Shown in pieces: positions 11,580 to 43,636 of a DNA stretch of 64,000 nt. The position numbers and the translations under genes are program-made. The notes under the pieces were generated by a model. It had not been told where the DNA came from, did no database searches, and worked only from the letters and a program-made list of their open reading frames with translations. Within the stretch, counting starts at the first letter, position 1, and every line of letters begins with the position of its first letter. This stretch comes from a virus. The stretch is from positions 1 to 64,000 of IMG/VR virus record IMGVR_UViG_3300025141_016375; one strand, 5' to 3'.

Positions 11580-12362
11580 ATGACCCACATCTCATATTCC
11601 GAATTAAAAGAGTGGACCGTGTGTCCATGGAAGCACAAATTAAATTACATTGATAGGATCAATGAATTTAAAGGAAACGAACATACAGCATTTGGCACCA
11701 GCATGCATACTGTATGTGAACATTTAGTTTCAGATGGCAAATTAGAGTCGACTGATTTTTTTGATAAAGAGTTTGTGAAAAATCTTTCCACTATTAAAGA
11801 AAAAGACCCCAATATCGTTTTTAAGAAAGATTTAGTGGAACAGATGAGAGTACAAGGAGTGGCGCTCATCAAACATGTGCTCCCTGCTCTTCGCTCGTAT
11901 TTTAGAAAGTTTGAGTTAATTTCAATAGAAGAAAAATTATACACCCCGATTGCAGATCAAGAGTTTAATTTTAAGGGCTTTGTAGATCTAGTTGTAAAAA
12001 CCTCAGACGGTAAATACCACGTGGTCGATTGGAAAACATGCTCTTGGGGGTGGGATAGTAGAAAAAAGAACGACAAGATGATAACCTATCAGCTTACCCT
12101 CTATAAGCATTTTTGGAGTAAAAAACACAACGTTGACCCTAAAGACGTAATTACGCATTTTGCGTTGCTAAAGCGCACAGCGAAACACCATCAAGTAGAA
12201 TTATTTAAAGTTACTAGCGGCCAGAAAAAAACACAAAACGCTCTTAAACTCTTAAATAAAGCCATATATAATATTCAAAAAGCCAATTTCATTAAAAATA
12301 AATTAGCGTGTTATGGAAGATATGGCACGTGCGAATACTATAAAACAACCCATTGCCCTTAA
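11580..12362 (+). CDS. PD-(D/E)XK exonuclease, Cas4/RecB/AddB-like, probable Fe-S staple
   Basis: ISYS..CP, GFVDL, VVDWKT, QLTLY and a C-terminal C-x6-C-x7-C. Confidence 0.9.
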   Translation: MTHISYSELKEWTVCPWKHKLNYIDRINEFKGNEHTAFGTSMHTVCEHLVSDGKLESTDFFDKEFVKNLSTIKEKDPNIVFKKDLVEQMRVQGVALIKHVLPALRSYFRKFELISIEEKLYTPIADQEFNFKGFVDLVVKTSDGKYHVVDWKTCSWGWDSRKKNDKMITYQLTLYKHFWSKKHNVDPKDVITHFALLKRTAKHHQVELFKVTSGQKKTQNALKLLNKAIYNIQKANFIKNKLACYGRYGTCEYYKTTHCP

Positions 12363-12370: not shown

Positions 12371-13642
12371 ATGAATAAAAAAATCAAACTCCTAACTTTA
12401 GGAGATATGCCGCTTTCTCCGAGCGGCGTGGGTACCCAAACCAAATACATTATTGAATCACTGTTGAGAACAGGCAAATATCAAGTAGTGAGTTTGGGCG
12501 GCGCTATTAAACACCCCAATCACAATCCTATTAAAACCGAAGAGTTTAAAGAAGATTGGGTGATTTATCCTGTGGATGGATATGGAAATCCTGACTTGGT
12601 AAGATCACTAATACGCAATGAAAGGCCCGACATTTTGTGGTTTATGACCGACCCTAGATTTTGGGCATGGCTATGGCAAATGGAAAACGAGATTAGACCC
12701 TTAATACCGATGCTCTATTATCATGTATGGGATAATTACCCCTATCCACACTATAATAAAGTGTTTTATGACTCTAATGACATGATTGTGAGTATTTCCA
12801 AGCTCACCCAAGACATTGTAGAAACGGTGGCTCCTAGTGTCAAATCAGTGTATTTGCCTCATGCCGTTAATACGGAAGTATTCACCCCGCGCGACCCTCA
12901 TAGCGACGAGATAGAAACAGCCAAAAGAACTCTCTTTGGAGAAAGTTATGATCCGGACAAATTTACTTTTTTTTGGAACAATAGAAATGCTCGCCGCAAG
13001 CAAAGTGGATCTTTGATTTTTTGGTTCAAGGCTTTTTTAGACAAAGTAGGCCACGACAAAGCTTGCTTAGTGATGCACACTGAAACAAGAGACCCACATG
13101 GCCAGGACCTTCAGGCTATAATTCAAGAGTTGGGACTAACGAACGGCGAAATATATTTTAGCCAGCACAAAGTGGATGCCGCACAATTGGCCTTGATCTA
13201 CAATATGATGGATTGTACCATCAATATATCCGATGCGGAAGGTTTTGGTTTAGCCACGTTGGAATCTCTAGCATCGGGAGTGCCTATTATTGTTAATATG
13301 ACAGGGGGCCTTCAAGAACAAGTGACTGACGGTGAAAAATGGTTTGGTATTGGACTCTCCCCAACATCTAAAGCTATAATTGGTTCCCAAGAGATTCCTT
13401 ATATATATGAAGATAGACTTTCGGAAGAAATAGTTGTACAAGCCTTATATGATATGTACACTAAATCGCCGGAAGAAAGAAAAAAACTAGGGGAGCAAGG
13501 CCGCCAGCACGTGCTTAAAAATTATAATTTCGAAAATTATGGGAAAGAGTGGGATAATATCTTAACTACGCTCTATGAGGAAGAGGGGTCATGGAATACT
13601 CGCAAACCTCACCAACGTTGGATATTTAAGGAGATAGTATGA
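12371..13642 (+). CDS. GT-B (GT4-like) glycosyltransferase
   Basis: SPSGVG, RNARRKQ, and EGFGLATLESLASGVP (EX7E). Confidence 0.92.
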   Translation: MNKKIKLLTLGDMPLSPSGVGTQTKYIIESLLRTGKYQVVSLGGAIKHPNHNPIKTEEFKEDWVIYPVDGYGNPDLVRSLIRNERPDILWFMTDPRFWAWLWQMENEIRPLIPMLYYHVWDNYPYPHYNKVFYDSNDMIVSISKLTQDIVETVAPSVKSVYLPHAVNTEVFTPRDPHSDEIETAKRTLFGESYDPDKFTFFWNNRNARRKQSGSLIFWFKAFLDKVGHDKACLVMHTETRDPHGQDLQAIIQELGLTNGEIYFSQHKVDAAQLALIYNMMDCTINISDAEGFGLATLESLASGVPIIVNMTGGLQEQVTDGEKWFGIGLSPTSKAIIGSQEIPYIYEDRLSEEIVVQALYDMYTKSPEERKKLGEQGRQHVLKNYNFENYGKEWDNILTTLYEEEGSWNTRKPHQRWIFKEIV

Positions 13643-15660
13643 AAACTAAAGTAATAGTAAGGGCACCCGCCCTGACTCGTACCGGGTATGGAGAGCACGG
13701 CCGTTTTGTATTAAGAGCATTGCGCACAATGCAAGATGTTTTGGATATACATTTATTACCAGTTAATTGGGGAGCCTCTAATTGGATGTGGGAAGACACT
13801 GAGGAGCGCCGTTGGCTAGATGAGATCACGCATAAGACGGCCATTTATCACCAACAGGCTCAGCAAGCTGGCGTTCCCGTACATTACGACATGAGTGTTC
13901 AAGTGACTATCCCCAATGAATGGCAGAAGATGGCTGCGATTAATATAGGCGTAACTGCCGGTATTGAGAGTACTAAAGTTGCCCCTGTGTGGCTAGAAAA
14001 AGCCAATGAAATGGATAAAATAGTTACCGTATCCCAACATTCCAAAAATGTTTTTTTAAATACAGCTTATGATGGAACCCACAAGCACACTGGCGAACCT
14101 TTGCGGCTCAAATGTACTACCCCTGTAGAAGTGGTACATTACCCCATTAAAGACTGCGACGCAACTCCTTTAAATTTCCAATGCTCTACTTCATTTAATT
14201 TTTTGACGATTGCACAATGGGGCCCTCGTAAAAATATAGATAACACGATTTGTTGGTTTGTAGAAGAATTTATCGATAATCCCGATGTAGGACTGGTAGT
14301 GAAAGTGTTTGGAAAAGGAGGGTCTCTCATAGACCGGCAGACTTCCCAACGCCAATTAGAAGCACTCTTGGCACCGTATAAAAATAGACAGTGTAAGGTT
14401 TATTTTTTACATGGTGATTTAAGCGAAGAAGAAATGCATGGTCTTTATAAACACCCGAGCATCAAGGCGTTTTTCTCGTTAAGCCATGGCGAAGGATTTG
14501 GGCTCCCGCATTTTGAAGCAGCATATTCTGGATTGCCTGTAATCGCTCCTGAGTGGAGTGGATATTTAGATTTCTTGTGCATGCCCAAAACGGATAAAAA
14601 AGGAAGAAGTCGCATTAAGCCACATTTTATTTCCGTTGATTATGAATTGTTACCCATTAACCAAGAGGCCCACTGGGAAGGAGTACTAGAAAAGGATGCG
14701 ATGTGGTGTTTTCCCACACAGGGATCATGTAAAATGAAATTGCGAGAAGTGGTCAAAGATTACGGCCGCTTTAAGAAACAAGCCAAAACCTTACAGAAAT
14801 GGATCTTGCAAAATTTTCAGCCTAATGTTCAATATGAAAAACTCGTTTCGAGCGTAGTGGGAAATTTAAAGGCTACGCCGGAGCCATGGCTTCCTCCTCA
14901 AAGTATTGGGGGGGTGAGTTTTTGTATTCCAACAAATGGAAAAAGATCCGAAAAAACCGATTTAACTATTAAAAGTATTCAGAACCAACCATGGGGCGAA
15001 TTGCCTTATGAAATTATAGTATGCGGGGATGTGGAAAATTTTCAAAACTCTTCGGGTGCCAATATCGTTCTGGTGGAGAAGAAAGACGCATCCACCACCG
15101 GCCATGTGGCCACTTTGCGAAATGGCGCAGTCGACCATGCTCAATATGATACCATTGTATTTTGCGATGATGACATTTTGTTAGATGCGGATTGGCTGGA
15201 CGGCACAAGAGCCTATAACGAGAATAATGGCTGGCAGGTCTTAGGAAACGCTTTGCTCAACCCAGATGGTACTCGTCACTGGGACCGTGCTTTATTGTCT
15301 CCGCATGTGTTGGTTAATTATAACCATCCAAGCACGGATAAAAATCTTATCCAAACATCAGGCTTTTTTATGATTCGACGTTCCCTCCACGAAATAGTGC
15401 AGTGGAACGAAGAGTGCTTTGTTTATGCTGATCGAGAGAATAAGGGCGTACCCGAAGATGTGCAGTATAGTTTAGATTTACACGCCCATAACATTCCTTT
15501 ATCTTTTAATGATACAGTATGTGTGTGGCACAATGATGAGCGCTACACCCAGTTTAACAATCAAACATTATATAAAAATGTTATTCCTGATCATCAAGAG
15601 CGAGGATTCTCTCCACTATTTGAACGGGCGACGATGGCGGCCACTTTCCAAAAGATATGA
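13639..15660 (+). CDS. Bifunctional glycosyltransferase, GT4-like plus GT2-like
   Basis: TGYG, PRKN and EGFGLPHFEA, followed by VSFCIPT, LRN.A, FCDDD and EDV. Confidence 0.9.
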   Translation: MKTKVIVRAPALTRTGYGEHGRFVLRALRTMQDVLDIHLLPVNWGASNWMWEDTEERRWLDEITHKTAIYHQQAQQAGVPVHYDMSVQVTIPNEWQKMAAINIGVTAGIESTKVAPVWLEKANEMDKIVTVSQHSKNVFLNTAYDGTHKHTGEPLRLKCTTPVEVVHYPIKDCDATPLNFQCSTSFNFLTIAQWGPRKNIDNTICWFVEEFIDNPDVGLVVKVFGKGGSLIDRQTSQRQLEALLAPYKNRQCKVYFLHGDLSEEEMHGLYKHPSIKAFFSLSHGEGFGLPHFEAAYSGLPVIAPEWSGYLDFLCMPKTDKKGRSRIKPHFISVDYELLPINQEAHWEGVLEKDAMWCFPTQGSCKMKLREVVKDYGRFKKQAKTLQKWILQNFQPNVQYEKLVSSVVGNLKATPEPWLPPQSIGGVSFCIPTNGKRSEKTDLTIKSIQNQPWGELPYEIIVCGDVENFQNSSGANIVLVEKKDASTTGHVATLRNGAVDHAQYDTIVFCDDDILLDADWLDGTRAYNENNGWQVLGNALLNPDGTRHWDRALLSPHVLVNYNHPSTDKNLIQTSGFFMIRRSLHEIVQWNEECFVYADRENKGVPEDVQYSLDLHAHNIPLSFNDTVCVWHNDERYTQFNNQTLYKNVIPDHQERGFSPLFERATMAATFQKI

Positions 15661-16433
15661 AATTATCTATTATAACCGCTGTTGGGCCCCTAAAGCACTA
15701 TGAAAAATTTATTCCTCGATATATCGATAATGTAATGGCTCAAACTGTTTTTAGTGAATGCGAAATTATTGTAGTTTACATGGAATGGGATGAGAAATTT
15801 ACACAGTTAAATAAACTAAATAATGTTAAGTATATTCTTGACGACCAAGAAAAAGGCGCCTATAATGCTTGGAATATGGGAATCCAAGCTAGCAATGCAC
15901 CCTATGTAACAAATTGGAATATTGACGACATTAGGCACCCCACTAGTTTGGAACGCCAAGCTACCATATTGGATAATAATTCTGATATTGATTTAATCTA
16001 CAATTATCACATGATAACTAATGATTGGGAAGAAACGTTTAAGAATCTTAATCCACACACAGAGCGGCATGTTAAATTTTATCCCGATGATGGACATGCA
16101 GTGGTCCATCAATGCTGCATGTGTGGACCAGATCCATTATGGAGGCGCGCCCTACACGATAAGGTAGGCTATTTTGATTATGAGAACTACCCTTCTATCG
16201 CGGATTGGGATATGTGGATTCGGATGGCCGACGCAGGGTGCAAGTTTAAACTTATTCCCTTACCACTGTGTCTTTTTTATGATGGTGATTCCAGCATTAG
16301 CCAACGTTTTCAATCTTCGCGAGAAGAAATAGAAAATAAAAAATTATACCAGCAGCACAAAGAGGGGTTTGATAACGTCTCTCCGGTTAAGTGGTCGATA
16401 GGACGCGTGTATATTAATGAAAAAAGTTATTAG
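15657..16433 (+). CDS. GT2 glycosyltransferase
   Basis: LSIITA, AWNMGI, NIDD and DWDMWIR. Confidence 0.9.
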   Translation: MKLSIITAVGPLKHYEKFIPRYIDNVMAQTVFSECEIIVVYMEWDEKFTQLNKLNNVKYILDDQEKGAYNAWNMGIQASNAPYVTNWNIDDIRHPTSLERQATILDNNSDIDLIYNYHMITNDWEETFKNLNPHTERHVKFYPDDGHAVVHQCCMCGPDPLWRRALHDKVGYFDYENYPSIADWDMWIRMADAGCKFKLIPLPLCLFYDGDSSISQRFQSSREEIENKKLYQQHKEGFDNVSPVKWSIGRVYINEKSY

Positions 16434-17070
16434 TTTTAGTTTGTGGGGCGACGATGAGAAATATACCATCGGCGCTATTCGCAATGCACAATTGGCCTCC
16501 CAAGTATATCCTGAATGGGAAGCGCGCTTTTATTGTGGGACGTCAGTCCCCGTTTCTATCATAGATCAATTGCGCGAATTACAGGCCCATGTGATCATGA
16601 TGGAAGAAGCAGGGGATTGGACTGGAATGTTCTGGCGCTTCCTCGCAATTGCCGACTCAGATGTAGAAATCATGATTTCGAGGGACACTGATTCACGATT
16701 AAACACCAGAGAAAAAGCCGCAGTGGATGAATGGCTTGAAGGCCCCCAACTTTTTCATATTATGAGAGACCATCCATGGCATAATGCCCCCATTTTAGGC
16801 GGAATGTGGGGCGCCCGCAAACCCTTGCTTCAGGACATGGCTCAGTTAATAGCCGAATATCAAAAAGGAGATTTTTGGCAAGTAGATCAAAATTTTCTAA
16901 GAGAAGTGGTAGCTCCTCGGGTCGAACATACTTTACATATTCATGATGAATTTTTTTCACGGAGTCCTTTTCCTACGGCTCGCAATGGTGATGAATTTGT
17001 AGGACAGGTATTTGACGAAAGTGAACAAACCATCCAAGAACATATCGAGATTTTAAGGAGATATTTATGA
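16417..17070 (+). CDS. Putative GT-A fold glycosyltransferase-like protein
   Basis: ISFSLWG, WRF, RDTDSR (DxD), MRDHPWH, ILGGMWG and DQxFL; cluster context. Confidence 0.6.
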   Translation: MKKVISFSLWGDDEKYTIGAIRNAQLASQVYPEWEARFYCGTSVPVSIIDQLRELQAHVIMMEEAGDWTGMFWRFLAIADSDVEIMISRDTDSRLNTREKAAVDEWLEGPQLFHIMRDHPWHNAPILGGMWGARKPLLQDMAQLIAEYQKGDFWQVDQNFLREVVAPRVEHTLHIHDEFFSRSPFPTARNGDEFVGQVFDESEQTIQEHIEILRRYL

Positions 17071-17726
17071 AACATGAACCCTATGAATTATGGTGGGAAA
17101 ATAATTTGGGAAAATCCTATGACCATGCAGGCACCCAACACGAAGCTCCCGATGAAGATGGGTTTATAACGTGGATGGGAGATCCTTTTGCTATGGATCG
17201 CCAACAGGTAAGGAGACTCCTAGATCCCAATATTAAAACATTTTTGGATGTGGGTTGCGGTGCGGCCCCCGAGTATATCGGACTGCAGCAGAGCCACCCC
17301 GACATTGAATACCATGGCGTCGATATTACTCCACGTTTAGTTTCGTATTGCACCAATAAGGGAATTGATGTGGTTTTTGGCACGGCGCGAAATCTGCCCT
17401 TTGATGATGCATCGATGGATGCTGTACATGCGCGCCATGTTCTAGAGCACATGGCAGATTTTAAAGAACCCTTAGCAGAATTCATTAGAGTGGCCCGCCA
17501 AAAGGTTTATATAGCTTTTTTCATTTCTCCCATTTTAAGCCCCACCAGTCGCATTACTGATATATCACAATTGGACATTCCTTGTTATAATAATGCATAT
17601 AGTTTGTCGGAAATAAAAGATTTTTTAGCGAGTAGCACTAAAGTAAAAAGCTATGAATGGTATAGTTTGGGAGGGCATAGTAAATGTTTGCTATCCATAG
17701 ATATAATAGATATAAAGAAAGCGTAA
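17067..17726 (+). CDS. Class I SAM-dependent methyltransferase
   Basis: FLDVGCG, GVDI, LPFDDASMD and HVLEH. Confidence 0.9.
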   Translation: MKHEPYELWWENNLGKSYDHAGTQHEAPDEDGFITWMGDPFAMDRQQVRRLLDPNIKTFLDVGCGAAPEYIGLQQSHPDIEYHGVDITPRLVSYCTNKGIDVVFGTARNLPFDDASMDAVHARHVLEHMADFKEPLAEFIRVARQKVYIAFFISPILSPTSRITDISQLDIPCYNNAYSLSEIKDFLASSTKVKSYEWYSLGGHSKCLLSIDIIDIKKA

Positions 17727-17753
17727 GCTGAATATTCAATACCCTCGCACTGT

Positions 17754-18329
17754 GTGAACAGCAACGAAAGAGAAGGAGTTATTAAAATGATAAATGGACA
17801 AACGAGATTCGTGTTAGACGAACTGGCACAAGAAGGTATCAAATCCGTCTTAAATATAGGATTCAGATATGATTCAGATAAAACTGTTAGAGATTCGGTT
17901 CACTCTAGGGGAGGAACTTTTTCTGTTTTAGAAGCGTATGGGCCTAATTGCGCAGATATGCGTATAAAAAATACTGCGGATACTGTGTATGAAAAAGATG
18001 TGCGAAACATTGCGGAGTTAGATGCGGAGTGGGATGCTATTATTTGGCTTCATGGTCCCGAACATGTTTATTGGAATGAATTTGTGGAGATACGAGAAGA
18101 GATTGAGAAAAAAGCTAAAAAACTTGTGCTCTATCAAGCTCCCATTGGAGAATATCCTCAAGACGCTCTTTATGGCAACCCATATGAAAAACATGTGGAG
18201 GCCCTAACCCCAGAAATGTTCTGGCACCTTGGATATGAAATAGTAGTCCACAATGGTAAAAAAACCCATGCGTATGATTTTGTTGAAGGAGAGTTGACGT
18301 TTTCCGCGGTACACAGAGTGGAGGGTTAA
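17754..18329 (+). CDS. Divergent SAM-dependent methyltransferase-like protein
   Basis: SVLNIG, VLEAY, DVRNI and DAIIWLHGPEH. Confidence 0.6.
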   Translation: MNSNEREGVIKMINGQTRFVLDELAQEGIKSVLNIGFRYDSDKTVRDSVHSRGGTFSVLEAYGPNCADMRIKNTADTVYEKDVRNIAELDAEWDAIIWLHGPEHVYWNEFVEIREEIEKKAKKLVLYQAPIGEYPQDALYGNPYEKHVEALTPEMFWHLGYEIVVHNGKKTHAYDFVEGELTFSAVHRVEG

Positions 18330-19184
18330 TTGTCAAAACTTTTAATAATTCAAGAAAATGGTCGTCATGACGCCAATCGTCATATGCGAGAGTGTTTTTC
18401 ACTTCAACATGGGCTCGCTTCGCATGGTATCGAATCGATTATTTGGGGTCTCGGCCACGACAATTTCTCTATTCCTTTTGAAGATATAGTTGCAGATTGT
18501 GATGCCATCTTATCAATTGAGAATTATGATACCGGGTGGATGCCAAGCTTGGCCGACATAAAAAAAACCAAGTTGTTTTGGAGCATCGACTCTCATTGTG
18601 CGCTTCGACAACATCAACATTTTTGCCACCATGCTAAAATTGATATTCTTTTGAACTCTACGCCTCATTATAATCAATTTTATTCTAATTTAGTTAAAAA
18701 ACGAGTGTGGTTTCCCAATGCAGTGGATTTAAGATGGTTTAGCCCGTTGGAGTGCGAAAAAAAGCACGATGTAGGGTTTTGCGGAAGCTTGATTCACGAT
18801 AGAAAACAGTGGCTTAACACCATTCACCAGCAACTACCAGTACGCGTGGGTACGGGAATATTAGGCCGCGCAATGATTGAAGAGGTTAATTCTTATCGGG
18901 TGTCACTTAATAAGTCAATTGATATAGACATACCATATAGAGTTTTTGAGATGACGGCATGCCGCTTACCTTTGGTGACAAATTATGTTCCCAACTTGGA
19001 GAGACTCTATGAACTGGGAAAAGAAATCGAAGTATATCAAACAGTTGAGGAATTGATTGCGACGACGACACGATTATTAGAAAACGAGGAAGAGCGCCAC
19101 GCATTGGCGCAAGCGGGATATGCTCGCACATTAAGAGACCATAACTATGAAATACGAGCGCGTCAATTAGTGGGACTTTTTTAA
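18330..19184 (+). CDS. CgeB-like GT-B glycosyltransferase
   Basis: DVGFCGS, RVFEMTAC and LRDHNY..R; TTG start abutting the previous stop. Confidence 0.85.
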   Translation: MSKLLIIQENGRHDANRHMRECFSLQHGLASHGIESIIWGLGHDNFSIPFEDIVADCDAILSIENYDTGWMPSLADIKKTKLFWSIDSHCALRQHQHFCHHAKIDILLNSTPHYNQFYSNLVKKRVWFPNAVDLRWFSPLECEKKHDVGFCGSLIHDRKQWLNTIHQQLPVRVGTGILGRAMIEEVNSYRVSLNKSIDIDIPYRVFEMTACRLPLVTNYVPNLERLYELGKEIEVYQTVEELIATTTRLLENEEERHALAQAGYARTLRDHNYEIRARQLVGLF

Positions 19185-19987
19185 TGCCAGACTTTCATAT
19201 TCAAGAAATATCTCATTTCGCCGAGGATGCACATTATTCATCCTCTTTGTTAGCCGTTCAACATCATATGGGCCTAGGCGATCATATACATTTATCCGGG
19301 CTCGTGCGCTATACAGTGGTGGAATTGGGTTTCGAGGAAGTGCTTTTGTTTTGCAAAGAAGTTTATTATCAAACAATGACTAGGCTTTATGCGGACGACG
19401 AACGGATAACAGTAGTATCAGTGGGAGACATTTATGGAGGCTTGTCGGAAACTGGTTTAGTAAGAAAACACCTTGAAAGTCTTGGCAGATCGTGTGTTTA
19501 TCTGCGCTTAGGCTTTGAGCGCTATCCCGGGCAACTAGCTAACAAATTTGGCTATCCGAGTTTCATTTTTTATGATTTGGCTTGTATTTCTCGCGACGTA
19601 CGATGGGAATATTTTAAATTTTCACGCAACCGTCGCGAAGAAAGCCGCCTTTATAAAAAATTGAATCCAAAGGACGTCCCTTATATTTTTGTACATGATG
19701 ACCCATCTCGCGGCTTTAATATCCCCCTTGAAAGAGTGCTAAAAGCCTCCCCTTTTGCGGACGACAAGCTAGTAATTCGAAATGACATGTCCGAAAATAT
19801 ATTAGATTTTGGCGCTATTTTAGAGAATTCCGCGGAGATTCATTGTATGGGGAGCGCTCTATTTTGTTTGGCGGATATGTTATCTCTAGAGCATCCAAGT
19901 TGTTTTTATCACAATATCCGGCCCGTATTCTCTGAATCAGAAATATTACACCAGGACACTCGAAACGAATGGAGTTGGGTACCGTAA
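19184..19987 (+). CDS. Putative glycosyltransferase-like protein (GLGD motif)
   Basis: HHMGLGDHI, YIFVHDD..RG and AEIHCMGS; cluster context. Confidence 0.55.
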   Translation: MPDFHIQEISHFAEDAHYSSSLLAVQHHMGLGDHIHLSGLVRYTVVELGFEEVLLFCKEVYYQTMTRLYADDERITVVSVGDIYGGLSETGLVRKHLESLGRSCVYLRLGFERYPGQLANKFGYPSFIFYDLACISRDVRWEYFKFSRNRREESRLYKKLNPKDVPYIFVHDDPSRGFNIPLERVLKASPFADDKLVIRNDMSENILDFGAILENSAEIHCMGSALFCLADMLSLEHPSCFYHNIRPVFSESEILHQDTRNEWSWVP

Positions 19988-20424
19988 TGGAGAAGCTACT
20001 TCAAATAGACGAAGGAAACAAGTCGTTGATCGAAGAGTTTCAGCGGACAGCCGGTTCCTCGTTAAAAACATTTAGATATTTTGAATCTCGGCCGGTGGAC
20101 ATCATCCAACAGCACTTGATAACATATATTATGACAGGTGAAAGTGGCGAAATCATCGGCTATGGCCATTTAGACCTGGAAGACAACGTTGTCTGGCTTG
20201 GAATATGTATAGTAGAAACTCAGTTGCGTTCCGGTTACGGGAAAAAAATGATGAAGGCTTTAATCGCTTTTGCTGATAACAACTCTGTTCAGACGATCAC
20301 TTTGTCGGTTGACAAAAAAAACGAAGCAGCGTACGCGCTATATAAAAGCTTAGGCTTCCAGAGAACCGGTCATGATAAAACAGTGTACTTTATGAAATTA
20401 GAATTAGGAGAAACAGATGGCTGA
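19987..20424 (+). CDS. GNAT-family N-acetyltransferase
   Basis: RSGYGKKMM (acetyl-CoA motif A) and N..AYALYKSLGF; TAATG coupling to the previous gene. Confidence 0.9.
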   Translation: MEKLLQIDEGNKSLIEEFQRTAGSSLKTFRYFESRPVDIIQQHLITYIMTGESGEIIGYGHLDLEDNVVWLGICIVETQLRSGYGKKMMKALIAFADNNSVQTITLSVDKKNEAAYALYKSLGFQRTGHDKTVYFMKLELGETDG

Positions 20425-20725
20425 TACATTGGGCGGTTTAATTGATAAACTAATCACGGTTGATATGAAGATGTGGAATAATCAGGAATTTCTTTATGAG
20501 GTAAGGAAAATGAGCTTTAAAGAATTTGAAAAAAAGTTTACCACCACGGAAAATGCACGAAATGAACTGTTTGAGTCTATAAAAAAATGCTGCGATCTAA
20601 ACGCACAAAGAAATCAACTCATTGATGAGGTAGATGAAAAAATTGTAGAAATGATGGGAGCTTATATCGCGGGGAAAGACTTAGATGACGGAAAATACAT
20701 TCAACGCAAACACAAGACCTATTAG
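20417..20725 (+). CDS. DUF4254-like helical protein
   Basis: TLGGLIDKL..DMKMW and DLNAQRNQLIDEVD; AGGAG RBS. Confidence 0.55.
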   Translation: MADTLGGLIDKLITVDMKMWNNQEFLYEVRKMSFKEFEKKFTTTENARNELFESIKKCCDLNAQRNQLIDEVDEKIVEMMGAYIAGKDLDDGKYIQRKHKTY

Positions 20726-20740
20726 GACAAAACACACGAA

Positions 20741-21415
20741 ATGAAAAAATGTTTTTATATACGTATAACTAAAAATGCCTGTCAAACGGTTTTTCATTTG
20801 TTTAAGAATGAAAGGGGCTTCATAAATCCCCATGCAGGCCCTACCCCGTATTATCGTAGTCCGATTGATGAATCTTTGGCACGCGAGAAAGATCGCAATT
20901 TATATCCTTTTGATTTTGAGCGGAGTGATGTGATTACGTTTAGTTTTGTGCGCAATCCTTATGATCGTGCCGTTTCTTCTTGGAAACATAGTCTTCGGGA
21001 AAACTGGACCACGTTGAAGTTTTTGGATTATTTAAAAAGGCTCCCGGCGTTAATTCCAGCCCAATCGGATTCTTTGAATGACAATGATTATGCAATTAGA
21101 CGCCATACAATGCCTCAATACCAATGGCTCAGTAATCAAGGGGGAGAGTATATTGTAGATTTTATTGGGCGGGTGGAGCACTTAACTGAACATGTACGCT
21201 TTTTTGGAAAAAAAATGGGGATGGAAACTTTTCCTTCTTCGCTGGGGCGACTTAACTCTTCGCGCCCTGTCAATGATGGGTATGTTAAATATTATTCCTC
21301 TGAAGAAAAAAAATATGTAGAAGAAATTTATGGAAGGGATATCCATCAATTTGGATATGAGTTTGGCGCCCCCGAGCCGTCAAGTGTTTGTTACTCGCGC
21401 CTAGGAGGAGAATAA
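20741..21415 (+). CDS. Carbohydrate sulfotransferase (Sulfotransfer_2-like)
   Basis: 5'-PSB-like IRITKNACQT, 3'-PB FVRNPYDRAVSSW, H..PQ, DFIGRVE and Y..DI..FGY. Confidence 0.85.
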   Translation: MKKCFYIRITKNACQTVFHLFKNERGFINPHAGPTPYYRSPIDESLAREKDRNLYPFDFERSDVITFSFVRNPYDRAVSSWKHSLRENWTTLKFLDYLKRLPALIPAQSDSLNDNDYAIRRHTMPQYQWLSNQGGEYIVDFIGRVEHLTEHVRFFGKKMGMETFPSSLGRLNSSRPVNDGYVKYYSSEEKKYVEEIYGRDIHQFGYEFGAPEPSSVCYSRLGGE

Positions 21416-21422
21416 GAGAAAT

Positions 21423-22658
21423 ATGACTATGCGAATTCCCGCTGCTTGTGTCGTACATGAGCTAGGATATGTGGTGTTAGACGATGAAACGAGAAAAGCC
21501 TATCGTGTGGTCACACACCCAGTGTTCGAGTTTATAACTTCAGAGGCTTATAAGAAGAAAGAAAATGAATATTGGCCAGCAACGCGACCCGTTTCTGTGA
21601 CTCATGAATTATTTAAAGATGATGCCACTTACAAAACTGTTGAAGTGGACTACGTGGATCATATGGTATATTGGCCCGAAATGTCCGCGCGGGATATTAA
21701 AATGTGTCTTTTGTTTTTGTGTGATGTTTCAAAATATTTGGCGCAAAACAATTTGTGTTTGGGATCCCACATGTGGAATATTACATTGACCGGTGGACGC
21801 CCCCTTCTTATAGATTTAGGTGATTTTTTTCATGGCGTAAACAAACAATATGTTTATCGCACCATCGTTAGTCATCTAGTTCCTCCTTTCACGGATAATC
21901 ATACCCCTTTGCGTCCCGAAAAATGGATGACAAACTATGATGAAATATTGGTTCAAATAAAGAACATTGAGGGTCTGGTTCGAACACCGTCAGCCAGCGG
22001 CGTTCAAATTGCCGAAGAATTAAAACGTTGCTTGTCCAATATTATCCCTCGCGAAGCTTCCCATATTTGGGATAGTTATCCGGCACAAAAAAAGATGCCC
22101 ACTGACATTGAAACTTTAGAAAGTTACGCCCAGAACATGCGTCCCAATTTGTGCGCTAGGATTAAGCAAAAAGCCCCCCAGACCCTTTTGGATTTGGGCT
22201 GCGCGCGAGGATTGTATTCTCTTTTCGCTGCAATTCAGGGCGCTTCGGTAGTAGGTCTTGATTATAGCCATGAAATGATAGGGGACGCCAATCAGAAAAG
22301 TGCCGCTTTAAAATTAAAATGCCACTTTGCTTTCATAGATTTGCTTGACATTAAAAAATGGGGGTTAGGAGGCGGTTATGGAGATTGTCTATCACGCTTT
22401 AAAAGCGATGCGGTTATCGCCCCCGCGTTGATTCACCACGTGCATGGGAAAAATAAACCTCTCGAAATATTGATCACGGAGTGGGCAAACGCCGCCACGC
22501 AATGGATTATGGTAGAGTATATTCCTCTCGATGTTAATAATCAACCAATCGACTTAAACACGATAACGGACACTTTACATGACCTAGGATTTAAAAATAT
22601 AGATATATTGAATTCTCATCCTGCCCCTAGGAAGTGGATTTTTGCAGAAAAGACTTAA
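21423..22658 (+). CDS. NoeA-like protein: degenerate kinase-like N-domain plus SAM methyltransferase
   Basis: N-terminal YWPEMS, HMWNI and PLLIDLG; C-terminal LLDLGCARG, GLD, ALIHH and VEY. Confidence 0.7.
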   Translation: MTMRIPAACVVHELGYVVLDDETRKAYRVVTHPVFEFITSEAYKKKENEYWPATRPVSVTHELFKDDATYKTVEVDYVDHMVYWPEMSARDIKMCLLFLCDVSKYLAQNNLCLGSHMWNITLTGGRPLLIDLGDFFHGVNKQYVYRTIVSHLVPPFTDNHTPLRPEKWMTNYDEILVQIKNIEGLVRTPSASGVQIAEELKRCLSNIIPREASHIWDSYPAQKKMPTDIETLESYAQNMRPNLCARIKQKAPQTLLDLGCARGLYSLFAAIQGASVVGLDYSHEMIGDANQKSAALKLKCHFAFIDLLDIKKWGLGGGYGDCLSRFKSDAVIAPALIHHVHGKNKPLEILITEWANAATQWIMVEYIPLDVNNQPIDLNTITDTLHDLGFKNIDILNSHPAPRKWIFAEKT

Positions 22659-22671
22659 AGATATTTGACTT

Positions 22672-23772
22672 ATGATTCCTATTTATAAACCTTATTTGCC
22701 TTCTCACTCGCTGAGACATGCGCATGCCGCGATTGACTCTACGTGGATCTCTTTTAACGGCCCATACGTGGAGCGCGCAACAGAGAAGTTGCGCGAATTA
22801 TTAGGAGTGAAATATGTCCAGCTTGTCAACAATGGCACCGCAGCTACTCATTTAGTAGCGAAAGGGCTTTTTTATAAGCATCCCAATATCACTAAAGTTA
22901 TTGTACCTAATAATGTGTATGTCGCTGCATGGAATGCTTTTGTTTATGATAAAAACTTTGATCTTGTGCCCATCGATGCTGATGTGGCAACCTGGAATAT
23001 GAACATCGAGGCCGCAAGTCATTTATTAGATGACAATAATACAGCGCTGTACGCGGTACATAATTTAGGCAATACAATTAACATTCCGGCACTTAAGCGT
23101 AGATTTGGGAAGTGCGTCTTTGTAGAAGATAATTGCGAAGGGTTTATGGGAACCTACGAAGGAAAGTATTCTGGTACCGAATCTTTGGCCTCTTCAGTGT
23201 CTTTTTTTGGCAATAAAACAATCACTTCAGGAGAGGGCGGCGCCGTTATTACCAACGATGAAGACGTTTTTAAACATGTCAAATCCGTTCACGGCCAAGG
23301 ACAGGCACCAACTAAAAAATACATTCATGATAGACTTGGCCATAACTATAGAATGACAAATGTGCAAGCTGCGATTTTATTAGGCCAGTTAGAAATCTTA
23401 CCAGAAATTTTAGAAAAGAAGAAGAATATATTTGATTTTTACAAAAAAGAATTTGCTCTGATGAGAAATGTTGAAGTTCAACAAGTCGAAGAGGGGTGCA
23501 CTCCTTCCAACTGGATGATGGGAGTGCGCCTACGATCTAGGGGAGGTTACGCCTCTTTGCAGAATTTTCTCGCTGATAAGGGCATTGACTCACGACCGAT
23601 GTTTTATCCCATGTCTTCGCACTCTCATTTGAAACATGTTGCTTCCCCCACCAGGGAAAAGGGGGCTAAAATACTTCACAAAGAGGGTGCAATTCTCCCC
23701 TCCTTCCCTGAATTAACGCATAATGAACTTGTCCACATTGTGGCTTCTATTGAGGAATACGCCAACAAATGA
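22672..23772 (+). CDS. DegT/DnrJ PLP aminotransferase, GDP-perosamine synthase-like
   Basis: NNGTAA, EDNCE, SFFGNKTITSGEGG (PLP lysine), NYRMTNVQAA, RPMFYP and LPS; translationally coupled to gmd. Confidence 0.9.
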   Translation: MIPIYKPYLPSHSLRHAHAAIDSTWISFNGPYVERATEKLRELLGVKYVQLVNNGTAATHLVAKGLFYKHPNITKVIVPNNVYVAAWNAFVYDKNFDLVPIDADVATWNMNIEAASHLLDDNNTALYAVHNLGNTINIPALKRRFGKCVFVEDNCEGFMGTYEGKYSGTESLASSVSFFGNKTITSGEGGAVITNDEDVFKHVKSVHGQGQAPTKKYIHDRLGHNYRMTNVQAAILLGQLEILPEILEKKKNIFDFYKKEFALMRNVEVQQVEEGCTPSNWMMGVRLRSRGGYASLQNFLADKGIDSRPMFYPMSSHSHLKHVASPTREKGAKILHKEGAILPSFPELTHNELVHIVASIEEYANK

Positions 23773-24740
23773 AAGCGATAATAACCGGAGTAACAGGACA
23801 AGATGGGTCATATTTGGCGGAATTGTTATTAAAAAAAGGCTATGAGGTGATCGGATTAAAAAGGCGCTCTTCCACTATTTGTACCGAGCGTATCGATCCC
23901 ATTTACGAGCATCCTAACTTCTATTTGCGTTATTTTAATTTAAACGATAGTGGGTGTTTTTGGAGACTTTTGCTGGAATATCAACCGGATGAAGTGTACA
24001 ATTTGGGGGCCCAATCTCATGTGAAAGTCTCTTTCGAAACTCCCGAAGAAACCGTGAAGAGCATCGCTTTGGGAACTTTGCGCCAACTAGAAGCTATTCG
24101 TACGATCAATCCGGCCATTCGCTTCTATCAAGCCTCTTCCTCTGAGATGTTTGGAATTAATGTAAATTATCCTTATAACGAGGAATCGGTTTCGATCCCA
24201 GCTTCCCCCTATGCATGTGCTAAAGTATTTGCGCACAATTTAGTTAAAAATTATAGAGCTAGTTATGGGCTTTATGCGTGTAGTGGTATTCTTTTCAACC
24301 ATGAATCGCCCCGTCGAGGCGAAACCTTCGTCACTCGGAAAATTTCCTTAGCTGCAGCTAAAATTAAATTAGGACTACAGGATAAATTATATTTGGGGAA
24401 CTTAGAAGGAAAGCGAGATTGGGGATTTGCAGGAGATTATGTAGAAGCAATGTGGCTCATGATGCAGCAACAACATCCCGAAGATTTTGTTATTGCCACG
24501 GGCATAATGAAGTCTGTACAAGATTTTGTAGAATGCGTTTTTGATTATGCTAAACTGGACTATAAAAAATATGTGGCAGTTGATGATCAGCTGAAACGTC
24601 CCCAAGAGGTACCGGCTCTACAAGGTGATTATTCTAAGGCCCAAAAAATATTGAAATGGGGCCCTCGCGTTACTTTTGAGGAATTAGCAGTGATGATGTA
24701 TGAATCGGACTTACAAAAGCTACAAAGGAAGACGAGATGA
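23769..24740 (+). CDS. gmd: GDP-mannose 4,6-dehydratase
   Basis: ITGVTGQDGSYLAELLL, AQSHVKVSF, YQASSSE, SPYACAK, NHESPRRGETFVTRKI and RDWG. Confidence 0.97.
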   Translation: MKAIITGVTGQDGSYLAELLLKKGYEVIGLKRRSSTICTERIDPIYEHPNFYLRYFNLNDSGCFWRLLLEYQPDEVYNLGAQSHVKVSFETPEETVKSIALGTLRQLEAIRTINPAIRFYQASSSEMFGINVNYPYNEESVSIPASPYACAKVFAHNLVKNYRASYGLYACSGILFNHESPRRGETFVTRKISLAAAKIKLGLQDKLYLGNLEGKRDWGFAGDYVEAMWLMMQQQHPEDFVIATGIMKSVQDFVECVFDYAKLDYKKYVAVDDQLKRPQEVPALQGDYSKAQKILKWGPRVTFEELAVMMYESDLQKLQRKTR

Positions 24741-25090
24741 GTGTTGAAATGAAAGAAATTTCCTATGAAATTAAAAAGAATACAATTGCTATTGATTTTG
24801 ATGGCGTTTTACATCAATATTCTAAAGGGTGGCAAGGGCTGTACAATGCTTATGACCCGCCTATGAAAGGGGCCGTTGCGGCCATTAAAAAACTGAAAGC
24901 CTCTGGCTATCGTCTGGTGATTTTTTCTAGTCGGGCAGTCCCGGTGATCCAAGAGTGGCTTCACAAATATGATTTAGATGATTGTTTCGAAGAGGTCACA
25001 AACACTAAAATCCCAGCCCGTGTTTATATAGATGATCGTGCTTATCATTTCGACACATGGGAAAAAACGATGGAGGACTTGTTTGATTGA
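24737..25090 (+). CDS. Small cap-less HAD-family phosphatase
   Basis: IDFDGVL, FSSR, and K...YIDDRA. Confidence 0.85.
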   Translation: MSVEMKEISYEIKKNTIAIDFDGVLHQYSKGWQGLYNAYDPPMKGAVAAIKKLKASGYRLVIFSSRAVPVIQEWLHKYDLDDCFEEVTNTKIPARVYIDDRAYHFDTWEKTMEDLFD

Positions 25091-25817
25091 TTCGAGCAAA
25101 AGAAGCTGGAGCAAAGCCGGAAGTTGGAAAGTATTGGGGTTTCTCGTTCTTTCCTCTCTTGCTTATGCCGCCACAGGCTCTTTAAAGCAAACTTCTGTAG
25201 TGGCCATCGTTTATCAGTTGGTAATGCTAGCCCTATTTGTGATTCATGAAAAGGTATGGAATAAGATCCAGTGGGGAAAAACAAGTGGTTTATTTATCCA
25301 AATGACAGGTATGAGCGGCGCCGGTAAGACCACTTTGGCCAAAAGCGTAGGGCAAAATTTACAGAAACAAGGGATCAAAGTGGAGGTAATCGATGGCGAT
25401 GAATATAGAACAAATTTATGTCAAGATTTGGGATTTACACGGCAAGATAGAGAGGAAAATATACGAAGGCTATCGTTTGTGGGGAAAGTACTTGGCCGCA
25501 ATAATGTAGTATGCATTATGTCGGCTATTAATCCCTATAATACAACGCGTAGCCATATTAAACAAGCCTCTCCTAATTCTAAATTAGTATATATTAAATG
25601 CGATTTGGAAGAATTAAAAAAACGAGACACCAAAGGTCTTTACGAGAGAGCGCTCCTTCCCGATGGAGACCCAAATAAGGTTTATAATTTTACCGGGATT
25701 TCCGATCCCTTTGATGTCCCAGCCGACCCAGATTTAATTATTGAAACCGACAAAGAATCTTTAACTAATTCCATAATCAAATTGGAAAAATTAATTTTAA
25801 AAAGTATTGGAGGATAA
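25083..25817 (+). CDS. cysC: Adenylyl-sulfate (APS) kinase with N-terminal DUF2061-like membrane domain
   Basis: TTG start after GGAGGA. N-terminal RSWSKAGSWK...HEKVWNKIQWG; kinase motifs TGMSGAGKTT, DGD, LGFTRQDREENIRR, RDTKGLY and FTGISDP. Confidence 0.95.
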   Translation: MIDSSKRSWSKAGSWKVLGFLVLSSLAYAATGSLKQTSVVAIVYQLVMLALFVIHEKVWNKIQWGKTSGLFIQMTGMSGAGKTTLAKSVGQNLQKQGIKVEVIDGDEYRTNLCQDLGFTRQDREENIRRLSFVGKVLGRNNVVCIMSAINPYNTTRSHIKQASPNSKLVYIKCDLEELKKRDTKGLYERALLPDGDPNKVYNFTGISDPFDVPADPDLIIETDKESLTNSIIKLEKLILKSIGG

Positions 25818-25818
25818 T

Positions 25819-26109
25819 ATGAGAGATATTACGATGACAGATCAAGCTGTAGGCGCTGTAATGATGGCGTTGCAGAAAAGTTTAATGGAACAAAGCGACA
25901 TTGTTCCGGTACTCAAGGGCTTCAAATTTGCCGCTACACAAGAAGGGTTGACGGTGATTAACCCGCCTTTGGTTAAGTTTAATGAGGAGACAACGGAGAT
26001 TTTCCGCGAGGCCCAGCGCAATGAGTTGAGTGAAGTGTCCACTAGCGAAAGGGCGTCCGATCCCGGGGGCTTTGATGTTGTGACGACACAGCCTACTACT
26101 TCGGATTAA
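25819..26109 (+). CDS. Hypothetical protein
   Basis: GGAGG RBS before the ATG at 25819. Confidence 0.7.
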   Translation: MRDITMTDQAVGAVMMALQKSLMEQSDIVPVLKGFKFAATQEGLTVINPPLVKFNEETTEIFREAQRNELSEVSTSERASDPGGFDVVTTQPTTSD

Positions 26110-26110
26110 G

Positions 26111-43633: not shown

Positions 43634-43636
43634 TTT

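Follow-up and report, generated by a model that had tools for sequence, protein, structure and literature searches.

The region from 12371 to 25817 of the window (the whole 64,000-nucleotide stretch of viral DNA analysed here, positions 1 to 64,000 of IMG/VR record IMGVR_UViG_3300025141_016375) belongs to an uncultured marine phage and is its version of a hypervariable island for glycan synthesis that occurs throughout the lineage, and we give an even chance that the island glycosylates the phage's own virion, most likely the distal tail proteins at serine motif sites. The island consists of 16 intact and tightly packed ORFs, all aligned in the same direction on the + strand and spanning 12353/12371 to 25817. 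At ten of the 15 junctions the neighbouring ORFs overlap, at one they abut, and at the other four 7-27 nt lie between them. A 16-gene sugar cluster had been proposed for this region by an earlier sequence-only reading, and was confirmed by the ORF map and by matches to Pfam, NCBIfam and PHROG profiles, from which the domains were assigned. Its members include five glycosyltransferase (GT) domains, two GT-like proteins, two clear methyltransferases, a GNAT, Gmd, a perosamine-synthase-like aminotransferase, a sulfotransferase, a small HAD and CysC. The analysis establishes which genes are present and intact, their conservation and synteny, the lack of genes for initiation and export, the coupling of CysC to a sulfotransferase and the enrichment of the serine motif; we infer every chemical step of the pathway, the order of the steps and the acceptor.

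Two conserved glycosyltransferases anchor the island. GT-A (g12371; 12371..13642, + strand; Pfam Glycos_transf_1, E 7.5e-11; phrog_2170, E 6e-27) is a retaining GT4 of the GT-B fold, and was found with 58-72% identity in 80/80 marine IMG/VR relatives, with 32-35% identity in Flavobacterium phage immuto and Microcystis phage Mel-JY01, and with 27% identity in Rhodothermus phage RM378. GT-B, the second anchor GT4 (13639..15660, + strand; residues ~1-410, Pfam Glycos_transf_1 at residues 188-314), is joined in this phage to a variable GT2 domain at the C-terminal end (Pfam Glycos_transf_2, residues 487-584). Its N-terminal part was detected in 68 of the 80 relatives (46-65% identity), in immuto (31%, E 5e-58) and in Mel-JY01 (30%, E 2e-48), with weak similarity in RM378. 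The left flank is a PD-(D/E)XK-type exonuclease (11580..12362, + strand; phrog_69/1218 exonuclease, E 3e-21), which has 555 IMG/VR relatives and retains its position in immuto and Mel-JY01. The order nuclease, GT-A, GT-B, variable island and right flank was observed in all 80 IMG/VR relatives (GT-B in 68) and in the cultured phages immuto and Mel-JY01; of this order RM378 has the GT pair only. The right flank (25807..27639, + strand) includes small ORFs, a Zn-ribbon protein (Zn_ribbon_8 match), a single-TM protein and a candidate late sigma factor, and its homologues directly follow the variable island in five relatives (G005, G006, G012, G033 and G038). The late sigma neighbour named earlier (g26579; 26579-27352, + strand) keeps a weak PHROG match (phrog_234, E 2.5e-5), but searches of Pfam and of PDB sequences were negative. 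A full-length gp6-like wedge protein was detected in 6 of 50,697 phage records, all six of which also carry GT-A, and RM378 is the seventh GT-A carrier, without a gp6 match.

Beyond the conserved GT4 pair lie 10-24 kb of variable sugar genes, and other islands encode NeuB and CMP-transferases, UDP-glucose dehydrogenases, DegT enzymes, epimerases and many methyltransferases. The soluble pair GT-A and GT-B would start the sugar chain on a conserved cytoplasmic acceptor, and the variable genes downstream would set the structure of the chain. The five GT domains claimed at the outset are located in four proteins, the GT4 and the GT4-GT2 fusion described above, a GT2 enzyme (g15657; 15657..16433, + strand; Pfam PF00535, E 4.8e-9) with homologues at 30-36% identity in 14 related islands, and a Glyco_trans_1_2 family enzyme (18330..19184, + strand; Pfam PF13524, E 5.3e-24). 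The two GT-like proteins are plausible as such. One of them, g16417 (16417..17070, + strand), a virus-specific, GT-A-fold-like putative hexosyltransferase, gave no match in the Pfam search; viral proteins make up 91-99% of the clusters that neighbour its Atlas model (pTM 0.93), a domain found in viral GT2 proteins is matched at TM 0.96, and GT8/Nucleotid_trans are the nearest named clusters. The other, g19184 (19184..19987, + strand, directly upstream of the GNAT), is the weaker case, possibly GT9/DUF6165-like: it has no match in Pfam, its neighbourhood in the Atlas is 95-100% viral, with GT9 (cosine 0.92) and DUF6165 as the closest clusters that have a name, and GNAT-DUF6165 fusions are present in giant viruses (TM 0.75). 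About five further GT domains, possibly together with these two GT-like proteins, would lengthen the chain.

Gmd (GDP-mannose 4,6-dehydratase; 23769..24740, + strand; Pfam GDP_Man_Dehyd, E 5e-118) scored 427.5 bits against the TIGR01472 equivalog cut-off of 415 bits. The product of g22672 (22672..23772, + strand; Pfam DegT, E 1e-63) is a PLP-dependent, GDP-perosamine-synthase-like sugar 4-aminotransferase, with perosamine synthetases as its best PDB relatives (3BN1/3DR4/3DR7, E 1e-47) and a LegC-family match under the family cut-off. These two enzymes would convert host GDP-mannose into GDP-4-amino-4,6-dideoxyhexose, and the sugar would be N-acetylated by the GNAT (g19969; 19969..20424, + strand; Pfam Acetyltransf_1, E 2.6e-13), a putative N-acylase of the 4-amino sugar with sub-threshold NCBIfam matches to PseH and WecD-type amino-sugar acetyltransferases. 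Three methyltransferase-like proteins had been listed, two of which are clear: g17067, a SAM-dependent methyltransferase (17067..17726, + strand; Pfam Methyltransf_11, E 1.5e-14), and g21423 (21423..22658, + strand), a two-domain protein with 18 full-length homologues, whose C-terminal half belongs to the class I methyltransferases (Pfam matches at residues 248-349). In the predicted model of g21423 (pLDDT 92.4), residues 211-411 match methyltransferases with Z 15-18, while the searches assigned no fold class to the conserved N-terminal domain (1-210). The third, g17754 (17754..18329, + strand, probable start near 17787), is a conserved protein without match in Pfam, NCBIfam, PHROG or PDB, and none of its 45 homologues carries a Pfam domain; its profile matches the putative methyltransferase 3CC8 only marginally (E 0.057), with a motif resemblance by eye. 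Two or three methyltransferases would thus add methyl groups to the chain. A small protein (20417..20725, + strand) has a sub-threshold DUF4254 match only (E 0.003).

The island also carries a sulfation module. The PAPS-dependent carbohydrate-type sulfotransferase g20741 (20741..21415, + strand; phrog_3347, E 2.3e-13) matches Pfam Sulfotransfer_2 over its full length (E 4e-12; 47.2 bits, cut-off 22), and its 3'-PB-type motif RNPYDRAVS aligns with PDB 3RNL. No match to g20741 was obtained by tblastn against the 50,697 phage records, and a word search gave one homologue only (51%). APS kinase (CysC; 25032..25817, + strand; Pfam APS_kinase, E 3e-43; TIGR00455 above cut-off) carries an N-terminal two-helix hydrophobic hairpin (DUF2061, E 3e-9), and in four related islands a syntenic copy with 65-76% identity closes the island on the right. 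Among 42 contigs, CysC is present in five, all of which carry a sulfotransferase, while none of the 37 contigs without CysC does. The five CysC contigs fall on five separate backbone branches, and their sulfotransferases belong to two different Pfam families. Since neither ATP sulfurylase nor PAPS reductase was found in any of the five, the role of CysC is in PAPS supply: the membrane-tethered phage enzyme would make PAPS from host APS, and the sulfotransferase would use it to sulfate the chain. The minimal HAD phosphatase (g24737; 24737..25090, + strand; 117 aa, DxD motif intact; Pfam Hydrolase, E 5e-8; phrog_1238, E 1e-16) also matches a polynucleotide-kinase phosphatase PHROG (E 6e-6), and adjoins CysC in four of the five CysC-bearing islands, with identity from 51% (G024) to 77%. 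By inference it would act either on the 3'-phosphate of PAP or as a phosphatase of sugar phosphates, and it may clear the inhibitory by-product PAP. The family-level matches and the strict co-occurrence of CysC and sulfotransferase support the pathway of the sequence-only reading, namely a GDP-perosamine-type sugar that is N-acylated, methylated and PAPS-sulfated. Its analogy with Mimivirus fibril glycosylation is apt, but the fibril-glycosylation clusters of Moumouvirus australiensis and Cotonvirus are the closer analogue, because they contain APS kinase and sulfotransferase as the island does (PMC10117803).

The claim that export machinery is lacking was supported and extended. The hydropathy scan detected no multi-pass membrane protein in the window island, and polytopic membrane proteins were absent from 12 related island loci. 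Searches for Bac_transf, Glycos_transf_4, Wzx and ABC-2 permease were negative in three complete relatives and in the window contig, with control genomes positive for all four. The island is not entirely membrane-free, because the CysC hairpin is a membrane segment, but this is an anchor and not a transporter. With synthesis genes present and no export genes, the most likely destination of the sugars is the tail proteins of the phage itself. The candidate acceptors are two distal tail or baseplate-peripheral proteins of 665 and 3443 aa (41636..53968, + strand), both enriched in the motif hydrophobic-S/T-G/A/S-S, which was defined on the window genome. They contain 9 sites versus 1.3 expected (z 6.9) and 14 versus 3.5 (z 5.8), located in non-repetitive contexts. 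Among nine tail-protein orthologues the motif is over-represented in eight (z 2.8-9.3, with six of them at 4.3 or more). Some sites occupy conserved positions and others lineage-specific ones, with turnover of positions among orthologues; the G033 orthologue has only 2 sites. Virion glycosylation is favoured because the motif is enriched (z 5-10) in a tail-protein subset of four of the five lineage members (window phage, immuto, Mel-JY01 and RM378) but not in the tail proteins of T4 and S-SM2. Non-structural proteins of the same four phages showed no enrichment. A fifth GT-A carrier, LR756508.1, showed nearly none in 49 kb around gp6, and the motif may reflect the structure of the lineage's fibre folds instead of a sequon.

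Less probable, but the strongest competitor, is a remodelling of the host envelope, in which the soluble GTs would assemble or lengthen a glycan on a lipid-linked intermediate of the host (Und-PP-sugar or lipid A-core) and a host flippase or ABC transporter, together with a host ligase, would perform the export. The cell surface, altered in this way during infection, might for instance block superinfection or grazing. O-antigens and capsules classically contain perosamine, nonulosonic acids and methylated sugars. The membrane-tethered CysC would also suit an inner-membrane process, the methyltransferase domain of g21423 is weakly like the O-antigen terminator WbdD, and the conserved GT pair could equally work on a universal lipid-linked intermediate. 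The predicted model of GT-A (pLDDT 85) has the chlorovirus NY-2A protein B736L as its closest solved fold (3OY2, TM 0.72/0.77), with MshA, PimB' and WaaG among its neighbours; since these use small-molecule or lipid-linked acceptors, the fold gives no pointer to a protein acceptor. Envelope modification is also the customary reading of the large GT clusters of marine cyanomyoviruses (PMC12801897), which share with the island a Gmd of ~55% identity and a similar make-up. In contrast, no initiating transferase, flippase, ABC-2 permease or polytopic protein was found in the islands examined or in three complete relatives, and the anchor pair is common to phages of Bacteroidota and Cyanobacteria, hosts that differ in envelope glycans. 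A slow turnover of the surface would probably be of little gain for a lytic-type myovirus of ~185 kb, and the motif enrichment of the tail proteins is left unexplained.

Improbable, in our judgement, is the action of the island on another cytoplasmic target, either host or non-structural phage proteins or a soluble glycoconjugate or glycolipid, for instance in anti-defence. GT-A scores above the threshold of the Pfam family 'GT4 in conflict systems' (PF20706; 30.3 bits versus 26), the acceptors of its top fold neighbours (MshA, BshA and sucrose-phosphate synthase) are small and soluble, and the island is located between the replication/repair genes and the late module. However, seven GT-type domains and a decoration with amino sugars, methyl groups and sulfate imply an oligosaccharide of considerable size, unusual as a small-molecule product, and the hypervariability of the outer genes would suit an exposed surface under selection better than a metabolite inside the cell.

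Glycosylation of hydroxymethylated bases of the phage DNA for restriction evasion, as in T-even phages or Pyle et al. 2024, is very unlikely. To our knowledge, no DNA glycan comes near the island in GT number or in amino-sugar and sulfate chemistry. The island adjoins a nuclease and PhoH, and in relatives DNA polymerase genes, and the GTs with which phages hypermodify DNA are diverse according to a citation in PMC12619734. In immuto, however, LC-UV-MS/MS revealed no glycosylated nucleoside, dA, dC and dT being canonical and dG being fully replaced by formyl-dPreQ1 (PMC10516641). A ThyA-family hydroxymethylase was not found in three complete relatives (10/14 control genomes positive), and a Tet_JBP search of the relatives, run without positive control, gave no match. 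DNA is an unlikely acceptor because of the unglycosylated bases of immuto and the absence of ThyA and TET enzymes from these searches. Scarcely credible, and rejected here, is the idea, raised by the sequence-only reading against itself, of a host polysaccharide cluster that was captured recently, is decaying and has no function in the phage: bacterial O-antigen and capsule loci typically hold such enzyme families, but all 16 ORFs are intact and mostly overlap or abut, the GC content is the same as in the flanks, syntenic HAD and CysC homologues (51-77%) occupy the same position in related phages, several island proteins including g16417 and g19184 belong to virus-only clusters, indicating long viral residence, and the closest Gmd copies among the phage records searched are those of cyanophages (~55%).

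The earlier suggestion of a cytoplasmic acceptor, virion proteins or phage DNA, finds support in one half only: the tail proteins remain as the best candidate, on the indirect evidence of an anchor GT pair shared across host phyla and of the motif in four of the five lineage members. In virion glycosylation, the distal tail proteins would take up the glycan at serine-rich hydrophobic-S/T-G/A/S-S sites. If this is true, the virion would wear an anionic, strain-specific glycan coat.

The 16 plus-strand ORFs of the sugar island fill window positions 12353/12371-25817, and the 15 junctions between them comprise 10 overlaps, one abutment and four gaps of 7-27 nt. Nearly all gene assignments of the sequence-only reading were confirmed by HMM searches. 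Virus-encoded glycosyltransferases (GTs) and nucleotide-sugar enzymes are clustered here: the five clear GT domains were recovered in four proteins, together with the GNAT, a GDP-mannose dehydratase of the equivalog class (gmd; TIGR01472, 427.5 bits against a cut-off of 415) and the Per-like aminotransferase. The last gave a DegT match, and perosamine synthetases come closest to it among solved structures (E 1e-47); the NCBIfam search for a GDP-perosamine aminotransferase gave no equivalog above cut-off (LegC family, 208 bits against 420). The sulfotransferase (full-length Sulfotransfer_2), the HAD protein (117 aa, with the catalytic DxD motif) and the APS kinase CysC, which carries a DUF2061 two-helix hydrophobic hairpin, were each recognized by HMM. 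Of three proteins read as methyltransferase-like, two were clear by HMM; the third, g17754 (genes are named by their window start), gave a marginal profile match to PDB alone (E 0.057), and its assignment was dropped as unsupported by HMMs. The GT-like proteins g16417 and g19184 had no Pfam match and fall in virus-only ESM-Atlas clusters, the neighbours of which are GT-A-fold or GT9/DUF6165-like. Residues 1-210 of g21423 (window 21423-22052) form a conserved N-terminal domain fused to a methyltransferase in all 18 full-length homologues; its invariant SHxWN...DxGDF recalls, by eye, a kinase catalytic loop and DFG motif, and Foldseek and VIA-align on g21423 returned matches only to methyltransferases, in the C-terminal half.

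The viral contig in IMG/VR is 73.9 kb long and the window takes in its first 64 kb; CheckV estimates the contig to be 41% complete, giving a genome of roughly 180 kb. The phage is taken as a large myovirus because gp25 and gp6-like baseplate genes and giant tail ORFs are present. Judged by gp6, which is about 30% identical, the nearest phages in culture are immuto of Flavobacterium and Mel-JY01 of Microcystis. The exonuclease upstream of the island has 555 IMG/VR relatives; among the 80 nearest of these, the first conserved GT4 (GT-A, g12371) was found in all 80, at 58-72% identity, and the N-terminal GT4 of the second gene (GT-B, of g13639) in 68. A shrunken island was seen in none of these 80. 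In 12 island loci, for which 10 longer relatives including three complete genomes of 185-191 kb were used, the order was constant in every locus: nuclease, GT-A, GT-B, then a variable stretch of 10-24 kb. The conserved right flank (homologues of 25807-27639) was reached after this stretch in the loci of five lineage contigs (G005, G006, G012, G033 and G038). The annotations of immuto and Mel-JY01 show the same nuclease-GT-GT start followed by sugar genes, while Rhodothermus phage RM378 has the GT pair only. Among 50,697 phage records, all six with a full-length gp6-like protein also carry GT-A, and RM378, in which the gp6-like query found no match, is a seventh carrier; within the lineage, GT-A thus has the distribution of a core gene. 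With the complete island as query, megablast gave no match in the same records.

In eight relatives, 147 ORFs of the variable island were tallied by Pfam. They include epimerases/dehydratases, GT2s, numerous methyltransferases, DegT aminotransferases, UDP-glucose dehydrogenases, NeuB with CMP-transferases, and radical SAM enzymes, and this content is predicted to be a repertoire for glycan diversity. In the sister islands (excised loci L092-L103, from G005, G006, G024, G026, G033, G037, G038 and G041), NeuB occurs with CMP-sugar cytidylyltransferases (nonulosonic acid synthesis), beside UDP-glucose dehydrogenases and radical SAM enzymes. It thus seems that the conserved GT pair is shared while the glycan made on it differs from phage to phage. 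In the model that we propose, the GT pair would start the glycan in the cytoplasm, as part of a phage-intrinsic system, and the variable island would diversify it; the product of this copy would be a methylated, sulfated chain with an N-acetyl-perosamine-type sugar.

The predicted sulfation rests on a module found in few members. APS kinase was detected in the window and in four of 41 relatives, always at the right end of the island, and CysC adjoins a small HAD protein in four of the five cases (51-77% identity). A sulfotransferase scoring above the Pfam cut-off accompanies CysC in all five carriers (Sulfotransfer_2 in three, Sulfotransfer_1 in two) and is found in none of the 37 contigs lacking CysC (Fisher exact probability about 1e-6, by our own arithmetic). 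On the exonuclease and GT-A tree the five carriers stand on five separate branches and five separate changes are needed, so the pairing arose or moved independently. Neither ATP sulfurylase (PF01747) nor PAPS reductase (PF01507) was found in any of the five contigs with CysC, of which G024 is complete. Since CysC is paired with a sulfotransferase and lacks these partners, it is predicted to be a supplier of PAPS in these islands rather than a sulfur-assimilation gene. Many bacteria assimilate sulfate via APS and make no PAPS, and a phage-borne supply therefore makes sense.

The sulfotransferase of the window matches profile positions 11-252 of 252 in Sulfotransfer_2 (47.2 bits against a cut-off of 22) and also phrog_3347 (E 2e-13). 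Its RNPYDRAVS segment is 3'-PB-like and aligned with 3RNL, a sulfotransferase of solved structure; for the 5'-PSB and the catalytic His, the candidates ITKNACQT (N-terminal) and HTMPQ were read by eye only. By tblastn it had no match among the 50,697 phage records, in which CysC itself has only five carriers, and a word-based search of 5.8 billion proteins gave one homologue of 51%; the enzyme is, as judged from these searches, rare. One 11.5-kb ENA contig encodes homologues of both the sulfotransferase and g21423 (51-54%). IMG/VR pattern scans with the sulfotransferase and with the 419-aa downstream protein returned no relatives. In the CysC-less relative G025, a sub-threshold Sulfotransfer_2-like fragment with an in-frame TAG (G025:C1:50692-50880) may be what is left of a sulfation module that was lost.

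The absence of export machinery, noted in the sequence-only reading, holds for the families and features searched. By hydropathy scan, the island of the window and 12 loci of related islands are free of polytopic membrane proteins, including those of the GtrABC/Oac type associated with serotype conversion; the hydrophobic features seen were CysC hairpins and a few single segments. The HMM set for initiation and export consisted of Bac_transf, Glycos_transf_4, Wzx-type Polysacc_synt and ABC-2 permease (PF02397, PF00953, PF01943, PF01061). None of the four matched in the window contig, three complete relatives and one 84% complete relative (G000, G024, G026, G037, G041), while the controls were positive in 10-14 of 14 genomes. 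An O-antigen or capsule locus of the Wzx/Wzy or ABC-transporter type would carry an initiating transferase, flippase or ABC-2 permease, and none of these was found in the five contigs. The island enzymes are thus predicted to be soluble and independent of lipid-carrier initiation and export of their own, with use of host machinery being possible. A phage-intrinsic cytoplasmic glycosylation system is the best-supported model for this gene content.

For the acceptor, the pattern [VILMFYW][ST][GAS]S was fixed beforehand and scored against composition-preserving shuffles. This serine motif was enriched (z 5.2-8.5) in five tail-region proteins of the window contig, where the sites lie in non-repetitive contexts; among the other 47 ORFs, 42 have no site and four have one. 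In immuto and Mel-JY01 the same enrichment was observed, in seven and six distal tail proteins respectively, and RM378, scanned as a whole genome since the gp6-like query found no match there, has about five enriched proteins. Non-structural proteins of these three phages showed no enrichment; baseplate and fibre proteins from T4 and from cyanophage S-SM2 have an equal S+T content but were likewise not enriched. Ten orthologues of the 665-aa protein, a distal tail or baseplate-peripheral protein at 41636-43633, have 23 motif-bearing alignment columns, of which two are nearly universal and eleven are singletons; this distribution suggests that motif density, beyond position alone, is maintained.

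Tail proteins of four of the five lineage members thus show the enrichment. As counter-evidence, the fifth GT-A carrier, LR756508.1, a 484-kb uncultured phage with GT-A and gp6 homologues, had almost no enrichment in the 49 kb around gp6 (L133, 95000-144000); either this phage contradicts the sequon idea or its fibres are encoded in another part of the genome. In addition, one orthologue of the 665-aa protein has two sites only, and part of the immuto signal represents known SGSF-type fibre repeats. On balance we give the tail proteins an even chance of being the glycan acceptor. The more inclusive proposal is tentative and, in our estimate, rather unlikely as a whole: that a global marine myovirus lineage of about 185 kb and the cultured phages immuto, Mel-JY01 and RM378 attach O-glycans to their own distal tail proteins in the cytoplasm, that the GT4 pair starts at the motif, that the island makes 'serotypes', and that the glycan is sulfated in about one phage in eight.

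The alternative that survives best is remodelling of the host envelope through host carriers and exporters, which we regard as possible though not probable. GT-A is a retaining GT4 with chlorovirus NY-2A B736L as its best match both by sequence and by structure, but its next fold matches are enzymes acting on small molecules or lipids, so that the fold does not settle the acceptor. Other cytoplasmic targets for the island glycan appear improbable. The sequence-only reading had inferred a cytoplasmic acceptor, most plausibly virion proteins or DNA; the former stands as the best candidate in view of the tail motif, whereas DNA is unlikely. In immuto DNA, LC-UV-MS/MS detected canonical dA, dC and dT, with dG replaced by formyl-dPreQ1, and no glycosylated nucleoside (PMC10516641). 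The ThyA-type hydroxymethylase (PF00303) is absent from three complete relatives, and a search for TET/JBP (PF12851), run without a positive control, gave no match. On the immuto nucleosides and the missing ThyA-type enzymes, DNA glycosylation was rejected, and DNA as the acceptor of the island glycan is very improbable. Decay of a captured host cluster was considered and rejected as hardly credible.

By analogy of gene content, the described system that comes closest is found in the Megavirinae, where Moumouvirus australiensis (ma457-ma468) and Cotonvirus japonicus have fibril-glycosylation clusters (Notaro et al. 2022, PMC10117803). By gene description these clusters share with the window a 4,6-dehydratase, aminotransferase, acetyltransferase, several GTs, adenylyl-sulfate kinase and sulfotransferase, and sulfation is only predicted in both (PMC10117803). 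Export machinery is absent from both, and in the Megavirinae the glycan is assembled within the cytoplasm on the fibril proteins of the virion. The g19184 and GNAT proteins of the window also resemble giant-virus GNAT-DUF6165 fusions. The Megavirinae differ in being eukaryotic giant viruses that use UDP-linked sugars (Qui2NAc, diNAcBac) and a bifunctional SAT/APS kinase, whereas the window has a GDP-mannose-derived route, a kinase-only CysC with a membrane hairpin, and an acceptor that is a candidate only.

The nearest phage parallels are, again by analogy, virion glycosylation in mycobacteriophages and the 'LPS' clusters of cyanomyoviruses. As cited in PMC12619734 and PMC12801897, O-glycosylation of mycobacteriophage virions (Freeman et al. 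2023) involves phage GTs that modify structural proteins in the cytoplasm to give a glycan coat, which the window would match with its soluble GTs. As far as those citing accounts extend, one to few GTs lie beside capsid or tail-tube genes, acceptor sites are C-terminal, and genes for nucleotide-sugar synthesis, methylation or sulfation are lacking; the window has 16 genes, and its putative acceptors are distal tail proteins. Clusters annotated for 'LPS / cell-wall modification' in marine cyanomyoviruses (P-SSM2, S-SKS1, ACG-2014f, DSL-LC02 and S-SCSM2R; PMC12801897) are, like the window island, large and hypervariable, with GTs, Gmd, epimerases and methyltransferases in marine myoviruses, and the function is putative in both. 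Their Gmd is about 55% identical to that of the window. The cyanomyoviruses belong, however, to a different family (Kyanoviridae or Llyrvirus), the clusters inspected lack the nuclease, GT-A and GT-B anchor, and they make fucose through GDP-fucose synthase, while the window is predicted to make a 4-amino sugar. In the literature, no report was found of a bacteriophage glycan island that itself encodes both a PAPS supply and a sulfotransferase, and the role of phage sulfotransferases was said in 2023 to remain 'unclear' (PMC10580990).

In the bacterial GDP-perosamine pathway (Caulobacter crescentus, E. coli O157, Vibrio cholerae O1), Gmd is followed by Per and then by an N-acetyltransferase. 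The window is similar in that Gmd adjoins the perosamine-synthetase-like aminotransferase and an N-acetyltransferase lies in the same cluster. This acetyltransferase is a GNAT, unlike PerB and WbdR, which are left-handed beta-helix enzymes. The window island also lacks ManB/ManC and a Wzx/Wzy or Wzm/Wzt partner, and the perosamine stereochemistry is putative.

The island lies within a 30-kb array (window 9291-39383) in which no intergenic gap exceeds 41 nt, in the order PhoH to exonuclease, sugar island, candidate late sigma to a 2962-aa structural ORF. There is no space for a promoter of the island's own outside coding sequence. The late sigma, named as such in the sequence-only reading, had one weak PHROG match only (E 2.5e-5). 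RCTAWTTA, a candidate late promoter, has a total count no higher than chance (15 found, 14.3 expected); 14 of the 15 copies are on the plus strand. Five copies, reading ACTAATTA or ACTATTTA, stand at 9261-9268, 39393-39400, 5364-5371, 527-534 and 62593-62600, each 25-33 nt upstream of a start codon; the genes concerned are PhoH, gp25, the tubulin-like gene and two more. Because the count equals chance, despite the strand bias and the upstream placement, co-regulation of the island with late genes is suggested only weakly. The tubulin/FtsZ-like protein (5396-6520; Pfam Tubulin E 2.7e-5, below cut-off) has homologues of 76-78% in 10 of 80 related loci. A phage tmRNA gene at 4969-5349 encodes the tag peptide ANDNVEFDFALAA, a form that we take to be more like proteobacterial tags than those of Bacteroidota or cyanobacteria and that may hint at the host.

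To our knowledge, marine phage GT clusters have been annotated as 'LPS' or 'cell-wall' genes for twenty years without test. One such cluster is now defined, with a two-enzyme anchor, a variable decorating part, a self-contained PAPS/sulfotransferase module and no export genes found. The interest lies mainly in that an old open question is made directly testable in three cultured relatives. If the host envelope were the acceptor, phages could rewrite surface glycans with cytoplasmic enzymes only. If the tail were the acceptor, glycan coats would be a new axis of ocean phage diversity, and might affect how phages recognize hosts, evade defences and stick to marine gels, as well as the viral share of sulfated organic matter; and if the tentative inclusive proposal were true in full, bacteriophages would have their first known example of a sulfated glycoprotein coat.
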